Shown piece by piece: positions 1,178 to 29,460 of a DNA stretch of 46,359 nucleotides. Position numbers and translations under genes: made by a program. The notes below the pieces were generated by a model. The model was not told the origin of the DNA and did no database searches. It saw nothing but the letters and a program-made list of their open reading frames with translations. Source of the stretch: a virus (lineage: Duplodnaviria > Caudoviricetes); the IMG/VR virus record IMGVR_UViG_3300037424_000570, positions 1-46,359 of that record. One strand, written 5' to 3'. Numbering within the stretch: the stretch's first letter is position 1; every line of letters begins with the position of its first letter.

Positions 1178-1203
1178 ATTAATCCGATTAATTATAACAC
1201 AGT
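1178..1203 (-). promoter_or_regulatory. Late promoter (TGtTATAAT) with palindromic operator ATTAATC-C-GATTAAT
   Basis: Extended -10 upstream of scaffold/capsid; 19 bp (1178-1196) identical to 13899-13917. Confidence 0.7.
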
Positions 1204-1241: not shown

Positions 1242-1341
1242 TGATAGAATAAGAGAGCGGGAAGGCATTGGTCAGCAAAAGGCTGCTCGATCACAGGCTT
1301 CCCGCAAGAATGCCGACCAGTGTGACGGGCAGCCTTTTGCT
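1242..1341 (+). promoter_or_regulatory. Promoter (TGaTAGAAT) plus structured two-state leader/attenuator
   Basis: 16-bp stem 1274-1289/1326-1341; the 5' segment 1257-1273 is complementary to the loop 1298-1319. Confidence 0.55.
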
Positions 1342-1357
1342 AAGGAAAGGATTGACG

Positions 1358-1549
1358 ATGAGCACGTGTGAAATATGCGGAGCAGAATTAGCATCGTTCG
1401 ACTGGACGATTGATAGTCCGCTCGTCGCTGAGATAACTTGCGAGAACGGACACACCACTTCGCGTGGGATATGGTGGTTCTGGGATCGGCCTATACCCAA
1501 ACTGGAGGATCACTCCACCCGCATCCCCAACGACTCAGCCCAGGCGTAG
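1358..1549 (+). CDS. Small putative Zn-ribbon protein (63 aa)
   Basis: CEIC...CENGH motif; purine-rich RBS; has its own promoter. Confidence 0.55.
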   Translation: MSTCEICGAELASFDWTIDSPLVAEITCENGHTTSRGIWWFWDRPIPKLEDHSTRIPNDSAQA

Positions 1550-4500
1550 AACCCCTCTCCCGGTCTGCCGATCTGCTCCCACACGTACCGGGCGAACCGC
1601 ATCTCGCCGATAGTCAGCGCCCTGCCCAACTGCGCCGCCGACAGCGAGAACCCGAACCCCGGATACTTCTCCATGTAGCCCTGTATTGCCGCCTGCTGGT
1701 TCTTCTCCGCGTCCGTGTCCGTGACGTACTGCTCTGTCTGCGGGAACGCGGCGAAGTAATCATCCTTCCAGGCGTTGTATTCAGTCCACGGTAAATCCCT
1801 GAACAACTTCTTGCGCTCTGCCTCGGGCAGCTCATACCCGTAGCTCATCGTCGCCGCCAGTCCGGGGAACAGTTGTTCCCGCTGCTGGTAATACATCTGC
1901 ACCGCCTGCGCATCGTTCATGGGCGGCATCTCCAGCGGCGGCGCTTCGATGACTTCCTGTCCGGGTGGGACTGGCGCTTCCCCTCCCAACTGCTGCGCCC
2001 ACATCGCCAACGTATCGCTGTCGATCAGCTCATCGTCTCCGCTCAGGAACATCTCGAAGTCAGGCCCCAACTGGTCGCGTATCGCTCGCTTGTCCAGCGT
2101 CGTGGAAGATGTGTACCTGTCCCACACCTCGTTCGTCAGCATCCCGTGCAGTCGTTCCTCCGGCTCCTTGAACAGCGCAATCCTTGCCTCATACTCCGGA
2201 TGCTCCTTGAAGAACGTATCCAGCGCCTGCTTATTGCCTGCGTGCCAGGCATCCCAGGCCGCGGAGTATTCTTCCTTCAGTCCGCGCAGTTCCAGTTCTC
2301 CGGTCGGCAGCAGGTCAGCCGGCAGCCAGCTAAACAGCGCGCTCCCGATCACGTCGGCCAGGTTGCCCTCGCCCTTCAATGCCTGCACGCCCTGATAGAG
2401 TGTCGAGATCCCCGGCGTCTTCAGCATCGTCTCGAACTGGACCCGCTGAACGGCCTGGTCGAATGCCTCCCCGCTGCGCTCGATCATCGCTGTGCTGGCG
2501 TCCCTTGCCGTGATAACTCCATCTGCGGCCATGTTCGCAAGCTGGCGGTCGATGTAATAGTCGCCCCACTTCCCGAACTGCGAGATACCCGCGCCCCTCT
2601 TATACGCCGCTTCCACGTCCAGCTTGGAGAAGCCCTGGATCCCAGTCGCGGCGGCCAGCGCCTGCGCCAGTCTGCTGGGCGGGAACGGTCCCACTTCTTC
2701 TGGCTTGCCCTGCAACAGCTTCTGCGGGATGCTGATGTACAGCGCCGGTGACAGGAACATGCTCATATAGTCCAGCGCGTCGCCGCCCTCGCTCTCCTGT
2801 GCGGCCATCAGCGCCCGCTCCCACACCGGCCCGCTCTTATTCAATTGCGCCTGTCTGCCCGCATCCTCGTTCACGTCGCCCGTCTTGATCCAATCGTTCA
2901 GCAGGTCATAGGCCTTATTCTCGAAGCTGTGCTGCTCCTGCATGATGCGCTCGAACGGCCTGAGCATCTCCATGAACGGGAACACTTTAGCCAGCGGATT
3001 GACGTACACACCGCCGCCTGCCCACTCCGGCAGTCCGGGGAATGGTATTCTCAGCTTGCCGCGCACCCGGCTGGCAATTGGCAGCTTGTCGTCCTGTCCC
3101 TGGCTCATGAAGTTAGCCATGCGTGCGAAGAACGCCAGCATACCCGGCCTGTCTGCGCTTCTCATCGCCCAGTTCTGCATCGTCCTGGTGAACCAGAATT
3201 GATACGGCGCGTAGGCGGTGAGCACCCGGTCGAAGTTGTATCGCTTGTCGTAGTTGAGCAGAGAGAAGTCACGCTGCGCCTGTGACACGTTGAGGGCAAC
3301 GTTGTGCGCCTGCGCCAGTCCCTGCTTGCTGTCCTGGTATAGCTTGCGCACGATCTGCTGTCCCTGCGGGTTGAGGAACTCGAACCCATAGCGCCCGCCG
3401 CCCGTGTCATTCAGCATGGAATTGAACAGCGCATTGATACCCGGCTTCATGTAGGCGTGGATCGCCTCGCTGTTCAGCTCGTAGTCGTACACGAAGTCAT
3501 TGATACCGAGCGCGTCTGACATGCCAGGGGCGATGTCGTGAGGCTGTTGCTGGAACTGCGGAGGTTGCGCGGCTTCAATTGGCGCGGCTGGCTCAGCCTT
3601 CGCCTCCACCCGGCTGCGTATCGTCTCGTTCGCCACGTCCCAGGGCACATCGTGCAGCGCAGCGTACTGGCGGTATTCGAAGGCGGACTTGATTTGGTCG
3701 GGGGAGAAAGCTATAAAAGACCTACCCCCAAATTCCTCATCTGAGACAATAATTCCGTCATGCCCTAACCTTTTGAGATTGTCTATGAATTCTTTCGGGC
3801 CTCCTTCATCCAATACGATTTTAGCCAGATTCCAGATGCCATCATCATAGCTATAGGGATTTTTGAGCGAAAGGTTGGCAGAATAGACTCTTTTAACCCC
3901 CATCGCCTCGCTAACGTCGTGATCACTAAACCATGCACCAAGTTCTGCAAGTGCTATGGCTTCGGGATCGTTTGTATTGATACGGGTTAATTCCCCCAGT
4001 CTTGAAAAGTCGAAGGCTTCAAAGTCCTCGGTTGTAGCATGGTAAACAGTTAGCGGCGCACCGCCCTCGTCCACCACCTTGCTCTCGCCAAACCACTTCT
4101 TGAACCCTGCACCTGCATCCTTGTTAACCGCGCTCAGCAGCGCCTTATGTCCACGCGTCCACCCCAGGCCAGTCAGTATCTCCTTGCTCGCCTGGTCTGC
4201 GAACTTTACCTTGCCCTCCCAGCCACCGACGGTATCCTCAACGTGCTCGCTCAACAGTCTATCAAACACGCCGCGCATCTCGTCGGATACCTTCGCAGTC
4301 ATGGCCGGGTCGGTCTTGCCCTGCTCTTTGAAGTGCGCCCACAATTCTGTGAGCCACGTCTTGAACTTCTCGAACACGTCACGCAGCTTGAAGTTGGGCG
4401 ATACGCCTTCTTGCAGGTACTTCAGCCCAGCGTTGGAGAACGCTTCGCTGTCGCCGCCGAACTCTTTAGCCACGATTGCGAGGTCCGCATCACTCAGCTG

Positions 4501-7500
4501 CCGCTCGAACAGGTGGAACGATTCGTGCGCAAAGCTGGACACGTCGGCAGCCTCGAACATGTGGATGATTGCGCGCCCGTCTGCCAGCCACTCGATTGCG
4601 CCGCGGGTGTCTTGCGCCTTCGCCCCCTTCTGCTTCAGCATCTTCTCGACTGCCGCCGGGCTGCGCCGTATCTCTGCGATGCTCTCGCTGTACCACTGCT
4701 CAATAGTCCGCTTCGGGTCAAGCGCCGCCCATGCTCTCGCTCTCGCATCCAGGAGCGCCTTGTTAGCTCCCCGCTGTGCGGCGTCAAGCTGCGGCAGTGC
4801 ATTGTCAATCATCCACGCCAGGGCTGCGCGCGGCTCAATGTTCACGTCCGTACCCGGTAATGGCTGCGTCCTATCGTATGGGTTGGAGTCTGCGAATGCG
4901 TTCCGGCTTGCGTCGGCTGCGTCGGCGTTGTCGCCCAGTCCCCAGTTGAAATCGAACCCGCGCCGGTACACGTCCTTACCTTCCGCGTCCGACCACATGC
5001 GGATGATACGGTTCGTCATGGCGTTGCGCAACTGCTCTACCCCTGCCTTAGCCGCGGCCTCGTCTGCGAACCCGATGATGAACTCGTCCCCGCCCGGTCT
5101 CTTGCGGTAGATGTCCAGCTTCAATTCCGTGGCCTGGTCTACCATCGCCTGGATGTATGCGTCACCAGCCCTGGTGCTGATGCTGTCATTGGTGTACTTC
5201 AATGCCTTCAAGTCCAGGCTGGCAGTGACAGGGTACCTGGCATAGAACGCTTCCTGTACACCCTCCACCCCTGTCCACAGCTTAGCTCCGGTGTTGGGGT
5301 CGCGCTTGCGCGCTTCAAGTGTAGCCTTGCGCCGTTCCTTCCCAACCCAGGGCGTGCGCGGCTTCGGTTCTGCGGCTGGCTCGGGTGTCTTCACAACCTC
5401 CGGCTCCTGTACCTTCACCGGATCCACAGGCGCGGGCGCTTCCTGATTCTGTCTGTTCGTCACGGCCTCTGCCCGTCTGCGTTCCAATAGCTGGCGATAC
5501 AGCTCAGGCGCGGGCTGGATGTCACGCGCCGGCGGTCTGCCGTCAATCGCGGCGAGCAGTCTCAACGCCGCTTCCTGTCCTTCTGCGGTGGCGCGTGTCC
5601 CGGCAGGCATCAGGATCTCCTCGTAGAAGCGCGGCCACATCTCCCCTTTGCGCGCCGGCGGGGTATCGCCTACGAAATTGCGCACCTCGTCCAGCACGAT
5701 CAAGTCAGGCTCGCCCCGTTCCCAGGCGCGGAAGTCCGCCATCACACGGCGCAGATACTCTTGCGCTCCGGCTGTATCGAGCATGTACTGCTCAGCCGCC
5801 GGGCGTGTCCGCTCTCCGAACTTGCCAGCCACCATGTCTGCGAACGGCTGCGCCATGCTCTCTGTGAACTCGAACTCACGCAACGAGGACGTATCGTATG
5901 CTTTACCCAGCGTCTTCTGGACAACACCGTATTCATCCCAGAACTTGACAGTATCATAGTCCTTCGCCCGCTTCCAGAAGTCTGCCCATTGTTTCGTCCG
6001 GTTCTCGAAGAACGATCCCCACTCGCCGTTGATCCTGCCAAGTTGCGTACCAAATGTACTCATCAACTCAGGGCTGCCGCCGTTGCCTCGTATCAGCCCG
6101 GCGTAGGTTGTCTCCACCCACTTCTGGTGTTGTCTCCAACTGCGGTCGGCGTCGCTCAATTTGCCCTTGACGTAATCGCTCTTCGCCTGGCCACGCAGGG
6201 CGGAGGCGTTATCCCAGGTCATCGTCATATCGACGGCCTGCGCCACACTCATGCGCATGTTGGCATCCATGATCGAGTACAACACGTCGCCCATCACAGC
6301 CGGGTCAGCCATCACGCGGCTTGCCACTTCCATCTCGCGGCGCGGTAAATCTTTGTCCAGGTACTCGTCCAGCTTTGTTCTTAGCTGCTCTTCCAGTCCG
6401 ATGATTGCGTGCTCCGGCGTCTCGCCGCGCTCCAGCCGCTCGTTCAGCGTGTCGAAGATCCCGCTCTCACGCATGAAGTCGGCGGTTCCCTTCGTCGTCT
6501 GTGTGGCCACGTCGTTGGCGTACTTCTCAACATTCCTGGTGACTTCGTCGCCAAACATCCGGCGTTGCTGTTTAGGATTTACAGCCGTCTGTAAGTCGCG
6601 CATGAATTCATCAATCCTTGCACCCTGGCTCCTCAGTATCTCCCTGTCTGCGGGCGTAAGCACCTTTTCCATCGCCGCTTCCATCGCCAGCGGGAAAGTC
6701 TTACGATGTGCCATGTAGGTTGCCCTTGCGCTGTCCGCCTGCTCCCAGGCCGCCGCCGCTTTGGTGAACACGCCCACTGTCCGGTTGACTGCGCCGGTGG
6801 AATCAATCACGCGCTGGCTCAGGTCCTTGCCACGCGTCACGCGCCTGATCTCGTCCTTCATCTTGGAGAACTCGGTCTCTAAATGCTTGCCGCCCACGTT
6901 ATCCCAGGCCGCCTGTCCCAATCCCTCTCGCAGTCTGGCAGGAACGGCGCCCATCTTCTCGAAGTAGGCGTTGATCTCGCGCATCGAAGTCCACCCACCG
7001 ATGCCGTCATACATGCGGGTAATCATGTCGGTCGCCACGTTGTTGACGAGATAGGATGGGGAGAAGGATAGCAGCGCCAGAGACTGAACGCCTTTAGCAG
7101 CAGACAACACCCGGTCAATCGCCTTGCTCTCGGTCACGCCGAAGAACTTGGGCAACGCCTTTGCGATGTGGTCGTCAAGCTGGACGTGCAGGTGGGCGCG
7201 GTAGTGCTGGTCGTTCAGCGTCCAGGGGTTCTCCTTGAAGAACTTTGCGTAGTCGGCAATCATCGCCGCGTTCACGCCGCGCAGGTCCGGGTTCTGTGAC
7301 ATTAGGCGTTCGATTGCACGCATGGTATCCGCGTCACCGTCTCCGATCTTGCGCGCCAATACCTCGATGTCCTGCCCCATGCGGTCGGCGATGTTGCGCA
7401 GTCCCTTCAACTTCTCGTTGGCGAGGGCACGCGTGGCGTCCATGTTCCGCATAATCTTCCAATCGAAGTCGTTGAGCAGTCCCTTGTATGTGGCGAATGT

Positions 7501-9165
7501 CGGCGTGTTCATCGCCTTCGCCGCGCCGACTGCGTTCTCGAACGATCCAGTCTCGATAGACTTTATCAGGCTCTTGAACTCGACATCATTCAGGTTTGAT
7601 ACCGCGCTGCCCATCCAGTCCACGACAGCCACTGCGCCAACCTTCGCCTGCGCCTCGGGCTGTAACTCATTCAGATGTGCGTACCACGGCCACACCTTGC
7701 CCAGCAGCCCGCCGCCACGCGCCAGGTCGATCTCTCCTGTCGGCGTCAGTCCTCCGAGTGTGCGTTGCATCCAGGTCGGCGCGCCTTCCAATGTCGTGCC
7801 CTTCAACACTTCCGGGTAGAGCTGGAACGTTTTCGACGCGCCACCGTAGTATTTATCGGCCATCTTCGCGGCCTGCACCAGTGCAGTGTCGCCCGTCACT
7901 TTGCCCAGCAGCTTCAATCCACCGGTCTCCACCTTCGGGACCGCGTTCAATGGGTCGAGCAAGCTCTGCCCGATCAGGTCCATGAGCTGGCCGGAGAAAC
8001 CGTATTGCTCCTGGTACTTGCCGATGATCTCTTGATAACTCTTGCCGGGGTTTGCAATCTGTTCGGCGGTCGCCATCTGTAATAGCGCCAGCCCAGCCGC
8101 GGGCACACTGACAGGCTCAAGCTGGCCGATGGTCTGCACCTGCCCAGCCTCCGCGAACCTGACGTCCGTACTCCCCTGCGTCAACATGTCGCTCAGCCAC
8201 TCGATGTGCGCCGGCAGGTTGCCAATCTCCTTGCCAACAGGGGTGGGCGCAAGGCTCTCATACGTCAGCCTGCTCGCTTCCCATACCTGCGGGATGTTGT
8301 TCAATAATTGCTGGAAGTCTTTATCATCCGAGAGCGCCGCGTCGCCAAGCTGCCAGGCCATGCCGATGGTCTGTTCGGCCTTCTCTGCCAGCCAGTTGAG
8401 CGCCAGCAGTCCCTTCGTTCCCATCCCTTCGAGGTCGCCTATCCAATCCTGGTTGCCGAACTTTGCCCGCAGTTTGTTGTACGTGTCAGGCGAGCCAGCC
8501 ACACCCAGGCCAACGCCCAGGCCCAGCAGGCCCACGGCAGGGAGCAGCGTACCACCCGCCACCAGTGCGCCAACGCCAGCCAGCGCAGCCCACGGTGCGG
8601 TAGCCGCCAGCCCATAGAGCACGCCGGATGATTGGATCGTGGCGGTTGTCTTCTGCCATGATGGGAGTTGCGCCCACTGCTCTGGGGTATAGGTGAACGC
8701 GGGTACTGCGCCGGCAGACTGTATCGGTTGTCCTGGTTGGGGTGGGTTCAGCAGCTCAGGCGGGGCAAAGTCTCCGAGTATCGCAGTCCAGTCAATCGTG
8801 CTGTCCTTGCTCATCCACTGGCTTTCTGGAGGCGGCGCGGGCTGTTGGTTCAGTAGCTCGGCGAAGTAGTCGCCCGTCGTGGGCAACGTCCATTCGGTCC
8901 ATTCTTTATTTGAGTTGAGCCCTTTTGCGTAATTGTACGCCGCCTCCACAAAGCCCGGATCAATGCCGAAACTCTGCCAGTCAAGCCCCTGCGTGTCCGC
9001 TTGAATGGCGTTGTAGTGCATGGCAATGTTGCGCGGGTCAGTCCAGTAGCCGCGCTCAATAGGTGCGGCAGGCGCTTGCGGCGACCAGTAAGACTGCGAT
9101 GGTTCGGGTCTAACCGGTTCTTGCTGCGGCGTTGCGGTCGGAGTTGGCGACCAGTAGGAGGCCAT
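1510..9165 (-). CDS. Giant internal virion/ejection polyvalent protein (GGDEF-like, HExxH metallopeptidase and ADP-ribosyltransferase-like domains)
   Basis: 2551 aa in the portal operon; motifs RPGGDEF, AHESFH...EAF and FKKWFGESKVVDEGGAPLTVYHAT...LKNP...DGII...FSPDQIKSA. Confidence 0.8.
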   Translation of the reverse strand: MASYWSPTPTATPQQEPVRPEPSQSYWSPQAPAAPIERGYWTDPRNIAMHYNAIQADTQGLDWQSFGIDPGFVEAAYNYAKGLNSNKEWTEWTLPTTGDYFAELLNQQPAPPPESQWMSKDSTIDWTAILGDFAPPELLNPPQPGQPIQSAGAVPAFTYTPEQWAQLPSWQKTTATIQSSGVLYGLAATAPWAALAGVGALVAGGTLLPAVGLLGLGVGLGVAGSPDTYNKLRAKFGNQDWIGDLEGMGTKGLLALNWLAEKAEQTIGMAWQLGDAALSDDKDFQQLLNNIPQVWEASRLTYESLAPTPVGKEIGNLPAHIEWLSDMLTQGSTDVRFAEAGQVQTIGQLEPVSVPAAGLALLQMATAEQIANPGKSYQEIIGKYQEQYGFSGQLMDLIGQSLLDPLNAVPKVETGGLKLLGKVTGDTALVQAAKMADKYYGGASKTFQLYPEVLKGTTLEGAPTWMQRTLGGLTPTGEIDLARGGGLLGKVWPWYAHLNELQPEAQAKVGAVAVVDWMGSAVSNLNDVEFKSLIKSIETGSFENAVGAAKAMNTPTFATYKGLLNDFDWKIMRNMDATRALANEKLKGLRNIADRMGQDIEVLARKIGDGDADTMRAIERLMSQNPDLRGVNAAMIADYAKFFKENPWTLNDQHYRAHLHVQLDDHIAKALPKFFGVTESKAIDRVLSAAKGVQSLALLSFSPSYLVNNVATDMITRMYDGIGGWTSMREINAYFEKMGAVPARLREGLGQAAWDNVGGKHLETEFSKMKDEIRRVTRGKDLSQRVIDSTGAVNRTVGVFTKAAAAWEQADSARATYMAHRKTFPLAMEAAMEKVLTPADREILRSQGARIDEFMRDLQTAVNPKQQRRMFGDEVTRNVEKYANDVATQTTKGTADFMRESGIFDTLNERLERGETPEHAIIGLEEQLRTKLDEYLDKDLPRREMEVASRVMADPAVMGDVLYSIMDANMRMSVAQAVDMTMTWDNASALRGQAKSDYVKGKLSDADRSWRQHQKWVETTYAGLIRGNGGSPELMSTFGTQLGRINGEWGSFFENRTKQWADFWKRAKDYDTVKFWDEYGVVQKTLGKAYDTSSLREFEFTESMAQPFADMVAGKFGERTRPAAEQYMLDTAGAQEYLRRVMADFRAWERGEPDLIVLDEVRNFVGDTPPARKGEMWPRFYEEILMPAGTRATAEGQEAALRLLAAIDGRPPARDIQPAPELYRQLLERRRAEAVTNRQNQEAPAPVDPVKVQEPEVVKTPEPAAEPKPRTPWVGKERRKATLEARKRDPNTGAKLWTGVEGVQEAFYARYPVTASLDLKALKYTNDSISTRAGDAYIQAMVDQATELKLDIYRKRPGGDEFIIGFADEAAAKAGVEQLRNAMTNRIIRMWSDAEGKDVYRRGFDFNWGLGDNADAADASRNAFADSNPYDRTQPLPGTDVNIEPRAALAWMIDNALPQLDAAQRGANKALLDARARAWAALDPKRTIEQWYSESIAEIRRSPAAVEKMLKQKGAKAQDTRGAIEWLADGRAIIHMFEAADVSSFAHESFHLFERQLSDADLAIVAKEFGGDSEAFSNAGLKYLQEGVSPNFKLRDVFEKFKTWLTELWAHFKEQGKTDPAMTAKVSDEMRGVFDRLLSEHVEDTVGGWEGKVKFADQASKEILTGLGWTRGHKALLSAVNKDAGAGFKKWFGESKVVDEGGAPLTVYHATTEDFEAFDFSRLGELTRINTNDPEAIALAELGAWFSDHDVSEAMGVKRVYSANLSLKNPYSYDDGIWNLAKIVLDEGGPKEFIDNLKRLGHDGIIVSDEEFGGRSFIAFSPDQIKSAFEYRQYAALHDVPWDVANETIRSRVEAKAEPAAPIEAAQPPQFQQQPHDIAPGMSDALGINDFVYDYELNSEAIHAYMKPGINALFNSMLNDTGGGRYGFEFLNPQGQQIVRKLYQDSKQGLAQAHNVALNVSQAQRDFSLLNYDKRYNFDRVLTAYAPYQFWFTRTMQNWAMRSADRPGMLAFFARMANFMSQGQDDKLPIASRVRGKLRIPFPGLPEWAGGGVYVNPLAKVFPFMEMLRPFERIMQEQHSFENKAYDLLNDWIKTGDVNEDAGRQAQLNKSGPVWERALMAAQESEGGDALDYMSMFLSPALYISIPQKLLQGKPEEVGPFPPSRLAQALAAATGIQGFSKLDVEAAYKRGAGISQFGKWGDYYIDRQLANMAADGVITARDASTAMIERSGEAFDQAVQRVQFETMLKTPGISTLYQGVQALKGEGNLADVIGSALFSWLPADLLPTGELELRGLKEEYSAAWDAWHAGNKQALDTFFKEHPEYEARIALFKEPEERLHGMLTNEVWDRYTSSTTLDKRAIRDQLGPDFEMFLSGDDELIDSDTLAMWAQQLGGEAPVPPGQEVIEAPPLEMPPMNDAQAVQMYYQQREQLFPGLAATMSYGYELPEAERKKLFRDLPWTEYNAWKDDYFAAFPQTEQYVTDTDAEKNQQAAIQGYMEKYPGFGFSLSAAQLGRALTIGEMRFARYVWEQIGRPGEGFYAWAESLGMRVE

Positions 9166-13900: not shown

Positions 13901-13923
13901 TAATCCGATTAATTATACCACAC
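13899..13923 (-). promoter_or_regulatory. Late promoter (TGgTATAAT) with palindromic operator
   Basis: Same 19-bp motif as 1178-1196; upstream of the terminase operon. Confidence 0.7.
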
Positions 13924-18250: not shown

Positions 18251-18979
18251 CTACTGTCTCACAACGCATACCTGACGTAAATAGCCACCATCATAGCGCA
18301 GCCACTCGTAACTGTAGCCGCTCACCGTGATAACACGCGGCGGCTTGACAACGCTGATCGTCAGCCGCTTCAACTTAATTGGTTGGGAATACACACGGCA
18401 AGATTGAATAACACGTGCCCTATATGATCCTCCTGGTGGTGGAGGTGTAACGGGGGTAACTGTCGGCCTGGGGGTTGGTGCAGGCGCAGGTGCAGGTAAC
18501 GGATCTATCTCACTCGTGAAGTTGAACGCATTGGCGTAAGCATACGGCGGCTTGCGCACTTCCCAATGTAAATGTGGTCCCGTGGAATTGCCGGTATTAT
18601 CAGAGAACGCCACGATGTCCCGGTAAGTCACGCGCTGCCCGACCGTCACGTTGAATGGGTGATTGGCGCGCAGGTGAGCGAACAACGCCCGCAGCGATTG
18701 GTTGGGATCTGTGAGCGTGATGTAATATGCGTAGCCGACCGTCGTATACCCTGCCGACGAGATGATGCAAGTCGGGAACGGGCAGTACAGATTGGTGCTG
18801 TTCGGCATCCCGTAATCGAGCGCTGGATGATAGCCGCTATAAAGCTGTGTCAGTGGAAAGTTGCCACGAAATGGTCTATATATTTCATATCGCCCGCCCT
18901 GGAACGGGGATGCTTTTGCTGGTAGAAACGGGATAACCAGGCTGAGTAGGATTACAAGTATCAATATCTTTTTTATCAT
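18251..18979 (-). CDS. Secreted M23 peptidase (cell-wall hydrolase)
   Basis: Signal peptide ending AKA; HPALD, FAHL, NTGNSTGPHLHWEVR; Pro/Thr linker; possible SH3-like C-terminal domain. Confidence 0.9.
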   Translation of the reverse strand: MIKKILILVILLSLVIPFLPAKASPFQGGRYEIYRPFRGNFPLTQLYSGYHPALDYGMPNSTNLYCPFPTCIISSAGYTTVGYAYYITLTDPNQSLRALFAHLRANHPFNVTVGQRVTYRDIVAFSDNTGNSTGPHLHWEVRKPPYAYANAFNFTSEIDPLPAPAPAPTPRPTVTPVTPPPPGGSYRARVIQSCRVYSQPIKLKRLTISVVKPPRVITVSGYSYEWLRYDGGYLRQVCVVRQ

Positions 18980-19674
18980 CCGTCCCTCTCTATCGTCACG
19001 GTATACCCTCCGCCCTTTAGCACGACCGGTAGAAAAGTCTGCTTCTCCCCTGGGAACGGGTACGCTGCGGTATTGAATCTGTCCAAGTCTATCTCCCTAC
19101 TCGACGCGCCATAGCGTGCCCCGTTCGGTGACACCTCGTATTGATGAATTAGGTGACTGCCCGGTCGCCAGCCGTTGATGGTGTTGAGCTGCCCGGTGGT
19201 CCACTGCGCGTGCCAGAGATGGACGCCGCCATCTTGCCAGCTCGTGCCAGGATTAGTAACTACTTTCGCATTCCAGAAGCCGGGCGACGTGTAAACCATC
19301 CTGCCGCCCAGTTGGGCCAGAAAATCAACAACACTTTCGCGAATATCACGTGGTCCCAGTCCTCCCGTCTCCTCAACATCACACGCGTGCGGTATCGTCG
19401 CGTCTCTGTCCTTGATGAGATCCCGGAAGTACTCCGCCTGCCTGATCGGGTCATGGTTCGGTCTGAAGTACCAATAAAACCCCCATACCTTGATGGGACT
19501 TGCCAGGATCCCGGCGTAGTGCTGCTCCAGCAGGTCGTCGGTATACGGCACGCCCGTCGCGTTGTCGGTGGATCCGGCGCGGATGATAGCAAAGCGGACA
19601 CCGGCGTCGTATGCCTTGTCCCAGTCCATGCGGCCATTCCACTTTGACACATCGACTCCAAGTATTTCGGTCAT
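18976..19674 (-). CDS. GH25 muramidase (endolysin)
   Basis: GVDVSKWNG, FAIIRA, GFYWYF, QAEYF, DVE, DLD motifs. Confidence 0.9.
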   Translation of the reverse strand: MTEILGVDVSKWNGRMDWDKAYDAGVRFAIIRAGSTDNATGVPYTDDLLEQHYAGILASPIKVWGFYWYFRPNHDPIRQAEYFRDLIKDRDATIPHACDVEETGGLGPRDIRESVVDFLAQLGGRMVYTSPGFWNAKVVTNPGTSWQDGGVHLWHAQWTTGQLNTINGWRPGSHLIHQYEVSPNGARYGASSREIDLDRFNTAAYPFPGEKQTFLPVVLKGGGYTVTIERDG

Positions 19675-24055: not shown

Positions 24056-24095
24056 TACTGTAGCCGTTATTCAACTACGTAGTATCGAACTGTCA

Positions 24096-26767: not shown

Positions 26768-27252
26768 CTCGCCTCCGCCTCTTTCAGCCACTCCACGGCC
26801 AACTTGATCCATGCACCATAGCGAGCGATCTCGGCATCGGTATATTCGTAGCATTCCCCAATCTCCGCGTAGTGCTTCAGCCAGTAATCGTAGGGGTGCC
26901 GCTCGCAACCGATGGAGATGTATCCACCCGCCGCGATTGCCTGGTGCCTGCCGCCCTGAAATGTCGCAAATTGGCCTGCGGCGAAGCTCAGGTCGGCGTC
27001 ACTCAGGTTGGCCCCGCTCAGGTTGGCCCCGCGCAGGTTGGCCCCACTCAGGTTGGCCCCGCTCAGGTCGGCGTCACTCAGGTTGGCCCCGCTCAGGTTG
27101 GCCCCGCGCAGGTTGGCCCCACTCAGGTTGGCCCCGCTCAGGTTGGCCCCACTCAGGTTGGCGTTGCGCAGGTCGGCGCGTTCGCCGCCAACCTCGCCGC
27201 GCAGCCGTGCCGCGTGTTTGGTAAGAACAACTTTTAGATCATCTGCGTTCAT
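26764..27252 (-). CDS. Pentapeptide-repeat protein
   Basis: A(N/D)L(S/R)G repeats; [15 protein letters not shown]-terminus and ISIGCERH...W C-terminus. Confidence 0.92.
26986..27175. repeat. 15-bp tandem units with an exact 75-bp higher-order duplication
   Basis: 26986-27068 equals 27061-27143; encodes the pentapeptide repeats. Confidence 0.9.
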
Positions 27253-27425
27253 CTCGCCTCATTCCTCTCCAGGTATTCCTCCAGCGCCCTGCGCACGATC
27301 TCGCTGGCGCTGGTGTACTCGCCGGTATCCAGCGTTCTCTGCGCGGCCAGTTGATTTACTCGCCGCCGCAGTTCCGGGGAAACCAAACTCGACAAACCCA
27401 CTTGTTCAGGTTTTTTCTCGTCCAT
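27249..27425 (-). CDS. Ribbon-helix-helix (Arc/CopG-like) regulator in the Cro position (58 aa, not in ORF track)
   Basis: [20 protein letters not shown]...[14 protein letters not shown]; GGAG RBS; first gene of the leftward early operon. Confidence 0.75.
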
Positions 27426-27474
27426 TTTTTACTCCGTAGTAGTCTACTATATCTGTAGTCACTTCACTGTATAC

Positions 27475-27503
27475 AGTCTAGCACAGTGTTTCTAATATGT
27501 CAA
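27475..27503 (-). promoter_or_regulatory. Early leftward promoter
   Basis: TTGACA-N17-TAGACT with extended TG; ACTGTATACAGT palindrome at the predicted start site. Confidence 0.75.
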
Positions 27504-27542
27504 TAAGGAGTTTTGTGCTATCATTATGACGGAGGTGAAACC

Positions 27543-28094
27543 ATGTATACGGACGACTATGTTGAAGATGAGATAGACGATCACGGGAGCGAACTACGTG
27601 AATTCTTCGAGACACGCTTCGCCCGCTTTGCGGAGATGAAAATGAAGAACCGTAAGCGGCATGGGCCGATGCCGTCGGTCAATACCTTTGCTGAATTCCT
27701 CCATCAGCACCCGGCAACTGTTGGGAGTTGGATGCGTGGAGCGCGACCATCCATCGGCTTGCAGAAAGTAGTGGAATTAGCGATCAGGTTTTGGGAGTTG
27801 GGGGAAGTTGGTAACAGCCCCTTCGGCTCACAAGACGCTGATGAATTGTTCAGGGTTGCCGGTCACGAGCCGGTCATGCGTATCAGTGACTTCAGGTTGA
27901 AGGAAATTGCCTATCAATGGAATAGGCTGGACAAAGATAGCCAGGAGGATCTATACCGCCGTGCATACCAACTCCTCGATACACAAGGAAATCACAGGCC
28001 AGCAGCTAGTGACGGAGGGGATGCCCCCCCTGACGAGCGACGAACTGCTGATGGGAATACTACAGACCTGGCGGAAACTAAACCACCACGGTAG
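27543..28094 (+). CDS. HTH (XRE-like) repressor
   Basis: SVNTFAEFLHQHPATVGSWMRGARPS HTH; GGAGGTGA RBS; divergent from the RHH gene. Confidence 0.7.
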   Translation: MYTDDYVEDEIDDHGSELREFFETRFARFAEMKMKNRKRHGPMPSVNTFAEFLHQHPATVGSWMRGARPSIGLQKVVELAIRFWELGEVGNSPFGSQDADELFRVAGHEPVMRISDFRLKEIAYQWNRLDKDSQEDLYRRAYQLLDTQGNHRPAASDGGDAPPDERRTADGNTTDLAETKPPR

Positions 28095-28176
28095 GGTTTT
28101 GATGTGGCGTAGATTCTTGACGCACTACAAGAATATGAAAATCTGGTCCCGGTTATTGCTCAAGATGGGCCGATAG
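28021..28176 (+). CDS. Small basic protein overlapping the repressor 3' end (51 aa)
   Basis: GGAGG RBS before ATG 28021. Confidence 0.5.
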   Translation: MPPLTSDELLMGILQTWRKLNHHGRVLMWRRFLTHYKNMKIWSRLLLKMGR

Positions 28177-28399
28177 ACTACAAGAGCCAGACATAACTAC
28201 TGTGTCTGGTTTCTTGTACGAGTTTTATAGAGACTACGTATATATTTCGCTTAATAGTACCTATCAGAATGCCAATACTGATTAGTGCGTGATACTGTAC
28301 TTAGTCATATACAGTGTAATCTAACAGTTTTGCAAGGAGATTTCTACCGTAGTTGTGACAAATGTGTACAGCTGTTATAAAACCATGCTAAGATAGTGC

Positions 28400-28490
28400 A
28401 GACCTGGTTTCACCTCCAAGAAAATCAGGTACGCATCCTAAATGGGACAAGGGGGAGAAGTCCCATCTAAGGAAATTGCCCCTTAAGCGA
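28400..28490 (+). ncRNA. Candidate anti-Shine-Dalgarno sRNA
   Basis: Upstream TGcTAAGAT and TTGTGA-N17-TATAAA; hairpin with CCUCC loop; 28405-28417 is the exact reverse complement of 27531-27543; possible 3' pseudoknot. Confidence 0.5.
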
Positions 28491-28510
28491 CTACGTATAA
28501 CAAAATAAAT

Positions 28511-28600
28511 ACACAGTATTGATACTGTGTTATAATTATATTTATAAAGCCCCGGTCGCACCGGGCAGCACGCCCGGCTAAACGAGTCGGGCGTTCGCTT
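28511..28600 (+). promoter_or_regulatory. Promoter, palindrome and double-hairpin leader of the holin operon
   Basis: ACACAGTAT-TG-ATACTGTGT palindrome; TGtTATAAT; hairpins CCCGGT/ACCGGG and ACGCCCGGCT/AGTCGGGCGT. Confidence 0.6.
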
Positions 28601-28617
28601 TATGGAGGAAAAATCAA

Positions 28618-28890
28618 ATGGAACAAGTATTCGGAGCCGTGACGCCGTTCTCGATCATGATGGTGGTCACACTACTCACCCAGTGGATCAAAGCAAATTA
28701 CACGCTCACCGCCAGGCAGGTCCAATATGTCGCCCTGGCGTTTTCATTGGTCCTCATCGTCGCATTCCAACTGTTGACTGTCGAGGGCATCGACGCCTTC
28801 GCCGTATTCAGCGCGCTGATCTTCGCCCTGTTGGGGTGGTTCGCAGCCATTGGGATGTACGAGGTGGCGACAAAGCAGCTAGGCAAATAG
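28618..28890 (+). CDS. Putative holin
   Basis: 90 aa, three TM segments, LTQWIK and GMYEVATK pattern; GGAGG RBS. Confidence 0.7.
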   Translation: MEQVFGAVTPFSIMMVVTLLTQWIKANYTLTARQVQYVALAFSLVLIVAFQLLTVEGIDAFAVFSALIFALLGWFAAIGMYEVATKQLGK

Positions 28891-29217: not shown

Positions 29218-29460
29218 ATGAGTGCAGAAGAACAGATAGACCTATTGGCTGATTACATCATGGCAGAAATTCCGAAAGAAATATTCGACGGGGGAGCGGG
29301 AGACGTGGCGGTTAAGGTTCTCAAGAAGCACCGTAAAGCATTCCGGGACATCATGAATGAATTGGGCGTTCCGGGAGATGGGTATCCTGCTCCAGTTGCC
29401 AATGCCTACCGTATTGCCGAGTTGACACTGGACGGGGGAGATCATGAAACGCAAACCTAA
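29218..29460 (+). CDS. Hypothetical protein
   Basis: Start MSAEEQID; ELGVPGDGYPAPVANAY motif. Confidence 0.6.
   Translation: MSAEEQIDLLADYIMAEIPKEIFDGGAGDVAVKVLKKHRKAFRDIMNELGVPGDGYPAPVANAYRIAELTLDGGDHETQT

Follow-up and report, generated by a model that had tools for sequence, protein, structure and literature searches.

The c4 RNA of phages P1 and P7 is cut from the transcript that it controls, and lysogeny is kept by termination or antirepressor silencing. The ribbon-helix-helix (RHH) type genes located near sar in phage P22 are Arc and Mnt. The c4 antisense RNA constitutes the Rfam family RF01695 (PMC2864571, in part), and the CI RNA of phage P4 is processed from the transcript under its control and maintains lysogeny by termination or antirepressor silencing (part of PMC4825925). 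According to the cited part of PMC12197685, the phage RNAs sar, OOP, aQ and 24B_1 silence antirepressors, activators or antiterminators and are mostly cis-antisense. In arbitrium phages, a proposed aimX antisense control of the repressor is described as minor relative to its small protein (10.1101/2025.11.23.689978, in part).

Whereas sar and OOP are encoded on the strand opposite their targets, the candidate RNA analyzed here is on the same strand as its putative target, the start site of a helix-turn-helix (HTH) gene. Positions 28401-~28485 have, in our estimate, about an even chance of encoding a ~85-nt trans-acting sRNA that would act by loop binding followed by stem unzipping onto the HTH start site.

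Genome setting and the predicted regulator gene

The phage record is a complete IMG/VR entry with terminal repeats, obtained from a sediment metagenome. All 46,359 nt were analyzed, and this stretch is referred to as the window. The majority of its genes are oriented leftward. The following features surround the predicted regulator gene.

27249..27425, minus strand: small RHH-like gene, divergent from the HTH gene, at the head of the leftward gene block
27503-27475, minus strand: promoter-like site of the RHH-like gene, TTGACA-17-TAGACT (promoter scan)
27497..27524, plus strand: promoter-like site of the HTH gene with extended -10 TGCTATCAT (promoter scan and motif search)
27531..27546, plus strand: target site on the HTH mRNA, from the SD across the spacer to the AUG (complementarity)
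27543..28094, plus strand: gene of a XRE/cI-type helix-turn-helix protein of 183 aa, a predicted regulator (fold and distant homology)
28179-28218, plus strand: long hairpin behind the HTH gene, without a canonical U tail (z -5.45, 0/200 shuffles as good)
28318..28326, minus strand: extended -10 motif TGTTAGATT pointing leftward, away from the candidate RNA promoter (motif search)

The HTH protein has no direct match in Pfam or PHROG, and a Foldseek search with its AlphaFold model (pLDDT 73) yielded none at E ≤ 0.001, the best being E 0.024. Its first match in the ESM Atlas (0.94) is among HTH_3 clusters, and the distant homolog P0004 belongs to Pfam HTH_3 with an E value of 2.3e-6. VIA-align of the N-terminal domain of the model resulted in a best Z score of 7.3, with XRE/cI domains dominating the list. 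These methods, each weak alone, assign to the target a predicted Cro/C1-type HTH fold of the repressor type. Neither integrase nor ParA was found in the complete record (PF00589, PF00239 and PF13614, each 0/1), where diverged forms could escape such a search. With tyrosine and serine integrases and ParA all undetected, the label of lysogeny repressor is unproven, and the HTH protein may instead gate early versus later genes.

The RHH-like gene matches Pfam RHH_1 with E 0.0011 and 19.3 bits, under the 20.5 cut-off, and is separated from the divergent HTH gene by the intergenic region 27426-27542. The HTH mRNA is predicted from its promoter-like site to start near 27530, and thus the SD would sit at its extreme 5' end. 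The calculated cost of opening the target site 27531-27546 is 2.2 kcal/mol.

On the 3' side of ORF 27543-28094 come the strong hairpin and 523 nt of spacer free of genes, and then a holin-like gene preceded by a consensus extended -10 at 28528. The hairpin at 28179-28218 is, judging by its predicted fold, likely the terminator of the HTH gene and possibly bidirectional; the terminator scan did not call it. The area around the 28318-28326 motif resembles the RHH promoter region in a repeat comparison. The leftward extended -10 at 28326 could yield a second RNA of ~130 nt (window 28311-28180, minus strand) converging on the hairpin behind the HTH gene, and this putative RNA is complementary to no start region over more than 8 nt. 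The motifs ACTGT/ACAGT and GACTAC/GTAGTC are repeated at 27434-27490, 28230-28330, 28489-28530 and 24057-24095, and 17 of the 65 copies of ACTGT are within intergenic DNA, which makes up ~6% of the window. These repeats may serve the HTH or RHH protein as operators.

Elsewhere, the window contains three methyltransferase-type genes and, at 1510-9165 (minus strand), the gene of a polyvalent-type protein of 2551 aa, in which residues 1699-1829 form an ART-PolyVal ADP-ribosyltransferase domain. A densely paired element at 1255-1345 (plus strand) is positioned between an extended -10 at 1242 and a 63-aa ORF. It includes a 13-bp stem (1274/1329) and the crossing complementary words GCGGGAAG/CTTCCCGC, GCATT/AATGC and GGTC/GACC, which suggest pseudoknots; its fold has a z of -3.47 (1/200 shuffles), and Rfam gave no credible match to it.

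Protein-based scans for homologous loci returned nothing usable, with two weak loci, none elsewhere, and two relatives for which the scan gave no locus. Among terminase relatives (43 viral loci and 7 genome loci), the HTH family was present in 0/5, 0/5 and 0/37 records, the last count referring to the 37 given of 45 viral loci. The distant homologs of the HTH protein, three and one more, are all on short Logan contigs. DNA-pattern searches gave 11, 10 and 6 matches that appeared chance-like on inspection, and GenBank phages gave no protein match and short DNA matches only. No RNA runs were found among the listed holders of the sequence. No family of Rfam 15, the c4 antisense RNA included, matched the window at gathering score; over 27300-28800 there were 3 weak matches (E 0.88-4.4), none on 28400-28490. 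A literature search, mostly of papers available without subscription and of their main texts, returned no description of the candidate RNA.

The candidate RNA and its complementarity to the HTH start site

The candidate RNA and the holin-like operon downstream of it comprise the following features.

28386-28394, plus strand: extended -10 TGCTAAGAT of the candidate RNA, 4/6 to TATAAT
28402..28430, plus strand: hairpin 1, whose loop ACCUCCAA (toehold) and 5' arm UGGUUU make up the 13-nt complement (folding)
28436..28484, plus strand: domain 2, a stem 28442-48/28460-66 with a G-rich loop pairable with 28479-84 (predicted pseudoknot)
28528..28536, plus strand: promoter motif of the holin-like operon, a consensus extended -10 TGTTATAAT (motif search)
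28541..28617, plus strand: structured leader and SD of the holin-like gene (fold z -3.28, 1/200 shuffles)
28618..28890, plus strand: holin-like gene, 90 aa with two to three hydrophobic segments (hydropathy and ESM Atlas)

The segment 28405-28417 is the exact reverse complement of 27531-27543, spanning the SD, the spacer and the A of the AUG, as a first-pass annotation of this DNA had reported. The pair is unique; GGAGGTGA occurs once per strand in the 46,359-nt window. With the flanks included, 15/16 positions match (27531-27546 / 28402-28417), the single mismatch being opposite the U of the AUG. Complement and target are on the same strand with about 860-874 nt between them. The annotation was also correct in that the SD-like sequence on the minus strand lacks a start codon, with AGG in place of the target's ATG. 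The only reading frame over the site is a 57-aa minus-strand ORF that is disrupted by 1-nt indels in variant contigs, and a coding explanation was rejected on account of these single-base indels.

The same annotation placed the CCUCC seed in a hairpin loop just past an extended -10. The seed is indeed 10 nt behind the 28386-28394 motif, but the two-hexamer promoter scan omits this site, the -35 of which is weak. From the position of the motif, the RNA is predicted to start at 28400-28401. The hairpin 1 stem (28402-28410/28422-28430) has 9 pairs, including one G-U (28407/28425), and its 3' arm mimics the target sequence. The loop is open, with 28412-28419 unpaired at P 0.97-1.0; 28405-28410 are paired in the predicted fold, however, which leaves about half of the 13-mer in the loop and about half in the stem. 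The annotated second hairpin and pseudoknot have their elements in place (ATGGGAC at 28442-48, AAGGGG at 28449-54, GTCCCAT at 28460-66 and CCCCTT at 28479-84), and the domain 2 stem can be extended by 28436-40/28468-73. Nonetheless, the nested minimum-energy fold pairs AAGGGG with CCCCUU in place of the 7-bp stem; the pseudoknot pairing, which is outside ViennaRNA's fold model, was judged from the sequence. Overall, 28401-28490 folds modestly better than its shuffled counterparts (z -1.64, 14/200).

The terminator scan called no plus-strand terminator behind the candidate RNA, between 28430 and 28543. The palindrome 28511-28530 was rejected as a terminator of the RNA, having a U tail on the minus strand only and 10 changes in a variant. 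Inspection by eye against consensus features dismissed two further classes, neither with Rfam support: an HDV-like ribozyme, for which there is no P3/L3, and a preQ1-like riboswitch, with which the G-rich loop disagrees. The G-rich loop word GGGGGAGA (28451-28458) is repeated at 29435-29442, in the SD of ORF 29444, and the reverse strand of domain 2 would expose the complement of GGGGGAGA.

The window contains 36 independent inverted matches of at least 13 nt, in 4 of which the arms are less than 2 kb apart, and match length alone is therefore no evidence. When intergenic DNA was shuffled, a match to one or another of 77 start regions arose in 192/2,000 trials, and the shuffled spacer matched the HTH gene alone in 1/2,000. 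For shuffled promoter-proximal RNAs (14 promoters), the match arose in 43/20,000 when the first 40 nt were considered and in 151/20,000 for the first 90 nt. Among the 14 real stretches behind extended -10 motifs, only the candidate RNA contains a complement above 9 nt. The narrower nulls (promoter-proximal, and spacer against the HTH gene) were picked post hoc, when the match was already known, and the chance probability is thus taken as a range of about 0.2-10%; an accidental match is unlikely.

Specificity was assessed with a home-made hybrid-plus-opening score over 77 hand-curated starts (17 automatic calls dropped and 16 added). The longest perfect helix with the candidate RNA is 13 pairs at the HTH start and at most 7 at the other 76 start regions. 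By hybrid energy, the HTH start ranks first of 77 with -25.8, followed by a runner-up with -19.1. Net of hairpin opening it again ranks first of 77, with -11.5 versus -10.3, a margin of 1.2 kcal/mol over a plain GGAGGU site. The small net margin implies that the loop alone is a generic anti-SD and that selectivity would require displacement of the RNA's 3' arm. GGAGG is present in 13/77 genes, and only the HTH gene provides 8/8 in-register pairs beyond GGAGG. G28407, a wobble within the RNA's own stem, forms a Watson-Crick pair with the HTH target. Eight of the 13 nt are what we take to be generic anti-SD, on the basis of a 16S 3' end that may differ from the host's. A ribosome-binding-site tag shared by several genes was rejected; the 2,926 start-region pairs have at most 12 nt in common, and the HTH gene is in none of the six pairs with 11-12 nt.

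A small non-coding RNA from its own predicted promoter at 28386 would then repress translation of the neighbouring HTH regulator. In the proposed mechanism the open loop ACCUCCAA would first capture the SD of the HTH mRNA (GGAGGU, at the 5' end), after which GAAACCA of the mRNA would displace the RNA's own 3' arm. The resulting 13-bp duplex across SD, spacer and AUG would block 30S binding. Specificity would derive from strand displacement, as the loop by itself can contact any GGAGG site. The 3' domain, with its stem and predicted pseudoknot, would likely stabilize or terminate the RNA, and lowered levels of the regulator would allow expression of the divergent RHH-led block. The earlier proposal of an sRNA directed against the repressor is thus sustained with respect to a structured plus-strand non-coding RNA and an HTH-specific seed, to which the nulls, the top rank among the phage ribosome-binding sites and the variants point. 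It does not carry over to the identity of the target as a lysogeny repressor or to trans action in preference to cis pairing, which is equally favourable in the models.

Sequence variants and alternative readings

Variants were read through the contig graph from unphased contigs of one sediment run (X1) with at least two sequence types, differences being listed beyond 30 nt from contig ends; run X2 covers the target side thinly and the RNA not at all. In 28333-28545, 32/213 positions (~15%) differ among the X1 contigs, three unlisted differences having been placed by inference. The contigs merge over 28403-28438 (seed) and 27531-27560 (target), and seed and target are without change between the variants; no compensatory seed-RBS change is present among those of X1. 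Two 1-nt insertions are the only listed differences within 28403-28468, and on the target side 27526 and 27530 differ. By chance, P is 0.05 for a 36-nt block free of changes and 0.11 for an unchanged 13-mer. The extended -10 at 28386-28394 has no listed change in a variant contig that differs at 28367, 28373, 28385 and 28397. The changes 28401 G>T and 27530 C>T each gain a pair and 28402 A>G retains one as G-U, which fits a plus-strand RNA. These three flank changes keep or add pairs in hairpin and duplex, and the match would be 18/19 if they came from one strain.

The listed changes in domain 2 are 28470 A>C and 28483-84 TT>AC. Depth arithmetic is best fit by two unlisted short contigs at 28409-28448 and 28421-28466, which would place changes at the predicted partners of 28470 and 28484 (28439 and 28449, respectively) and a third within 28450-28466. 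The partners 28439/28470 and 28449/28484 would then have changed jointly, the changes at 28470 and 28484 being read by letter and those at 28439 and 28449 deriving from the contig graph. Two such double changes have P 0.012-0.022 under random placement, and the slid control is maximal at offset 0. The 28483-84 TT>AC change would cost two pseudoknot pairs unless the partners, whose letters are unseen, changed as well. In sum, the variant pattern speaks more for a structured RNA on the plus strand than for the target.

The holin-like protein has no Pfam or PHROG match; in the ESM Atlas it scores 0.91 with 209/256 features in common, among Phage_holin_5_2 clusters. The predicted fold of its leader (28541-28617) is a three-way junction with the SD partly covered. 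Variant contigs have at most one difference across 28546-28640, whereas the preceding 60 nt are ~30% different. Consensus extended -10 promoters (TGnTATAAT) are common to 1183-1203 (minus), 13902-13920 (minus), 15188 (minus) and 28524-28538 (plus). A 15-nt copy of the holin-operon extended -10 region is located at 1189-1203 on the minus strand, and the same TAATCGGATTAAT follows two of the four. On sequence similarity these promoters are likely a late promoter class. The GH25 and M23 lysin genes (18251-19674) are on the opposite strand, 9 kb away from the holin-like gene.

The element is downstream of the HTH gene on the same strand, 874 nt from the SD, and could be the far 3'-UTR of a read-through HTH mRNA that folds back on the SD of its own molecule, a self-limiting arrangement resembling that of icaR, likewise a repressor mRNA (PMC3868564, in part). 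In an RNA of 27530-28490 hairpin 1 gives way to the 13 pairs, predicted at P 0.86-1.0, although equilibrium folding of 960 nt exaggerates long-range pairs. The intervening 28179-28218 hairpin lacks the canonical U tail, a point in favour of such read-through, yet it is very strong (z -5.45); the leftward promoter motif at 28326 opposes read-through, and the extended -10 ahead of the seed is the same in the variant. We regard this reading as unlikely. The RNA could alternatively be the 5' leader of an early holin-operon read-through transcript that masks the holin SD in cis and is omitted from transcripts of the late-type 28528 promoter, as in the lysis timing of T4 gene e. The absence of a called plus-strand terminator between 28430 and 28543 agrees with such a transcript, as do the two tandem promoters ahead of a lysis gene, like those of T4 e (PMC3014915, in part), and in an RNA of 28401-28660 the loop pairs with the holin SD at P 0.75. 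The holin leader is, however, a secondary and weaker seed partner (6+6 pairs at 28603-28616), ranking just 6th-7th of 77 by hybrid energy; the cost of opening it increases just modestly, from 3.2 to 4.9 kcal/mol, and hairpin 1 would form first during transcription. The perfect match to the HTH start would be left unexplained, and holin masking is accordingly given a small probability. The sRNA, the icaR-like cis pairing and the T4 e-like masking are not mutually exclusive. In a broader and improbable version, a natural, pseudoknot-capped toehold-switch RNA at a genome hinge would rely on one seed to silence both the upstream cI-like regulator and, in a read-through form, the downstream holin start; lytic entry would then be coupled to lysis delay in a phage in which no integrase was detected.

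Two further readings dispense with a specific RNA-target pair. The structured RNA could act broadly, damping many phage or host mRNAs with strong SDs through a generic anti-SD loop, and the further five matching nt would be incidental. Its accessible part is ACCUCCAA only, the loop by itself binds other genes with calculated energies down to -10.3, -8.6 and -8.4, and GGAGG sites are available in the 13 genes noted above. Five more matches by chance, however, are expected at ~1 in 1,000 per given site, and the stem wobble favours the HTH site, which makes this reading very unlikely. Alternatively, the match may be an inverted copy of the start site, arisen by accident or decayed, within an AT-rich promoter or operator region that encodes no regulatory RNA. 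The abundance of inverted 13-mers, the outcome of the widest null, the modest fold z and the richness of the spacer in ACTGT/ACAGT and GACTAC DNA motifs are compatible with such an origin, and recombination can produce conserved blocks. The promoter-proximal null (43/20,000), the location of the seed in a loop and the structure-compatible variant changes argue against it, and we consider it doubtful.

Relation to described regulatory RNAs

The trans-acting RNA, at about even probability the leading reading, would resemble P22 sar as a phage RNA in a control region that blocks translation initiation of a life-cycle regulator mRNA, with an RHH-type gene nearby. Unlike the candidate RNA, sar is opposite its target and silences an antirepressor (PMC12197685, in part). 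The candidate RNA is on the same strand as its target, ~860 nt away, pairs over 13-16 nt and would act on a cI-like protein. In being encoded apart from short target sites within the same control region, and in exposing loops, it is similar to P1/P7 c4 and the P4 CI RNA (the latter in PMC4825925, in part); it differs from them in having one site on the HTH mRNA, no Rfam match and no integrase detected in the phage. Since there is no Rfam match, the RNA is not opposite its target and the target is cI-like, it belongs to neither group, though as proposed it functions like both.

The partial descriptions of icaR and T4 gene e provide the cis counterparts. As in Staphylococcus aureus icaR, the SD of a repressor-type gene is complementary to a C-rich motif located 3' of it on the same strand; the icaR motif is 7 nt long and internal to the mRNA that it controls, whereas here a hairpin and a promoter motif intervene and the match extends from SD to AUG (PMC3868564, in part). 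As in T4 gene e, an upstream RNA is able to cover a lysis-gene SD and a late promoter is downstream of the masking strand. The T4 e stem-loop is local (PMC3014915, in part), in contrast to the pairing considered here, which bridges 190 nt with imperfections and would have to compete against a better partner. Lambda OOP (PMC12197685) and the arbitrium aimX antisense (10.1101/2025.11.23.689978) are phage RNAs proposed or shown, in the cited parts, to lower a lysogeny regulator; both are cis-antisense overlaps, unlike the candidate RNA, and the failure of the aimX antisense model counsels caution for the present one. A trans-encoded RNA directed against the cI-like regulator's own start site would constitute an RNA antirepressor, and its loop-then-displace design, which would explain the selectivity of an anti-SD loop, would be a natural counterpart of toehold switches.
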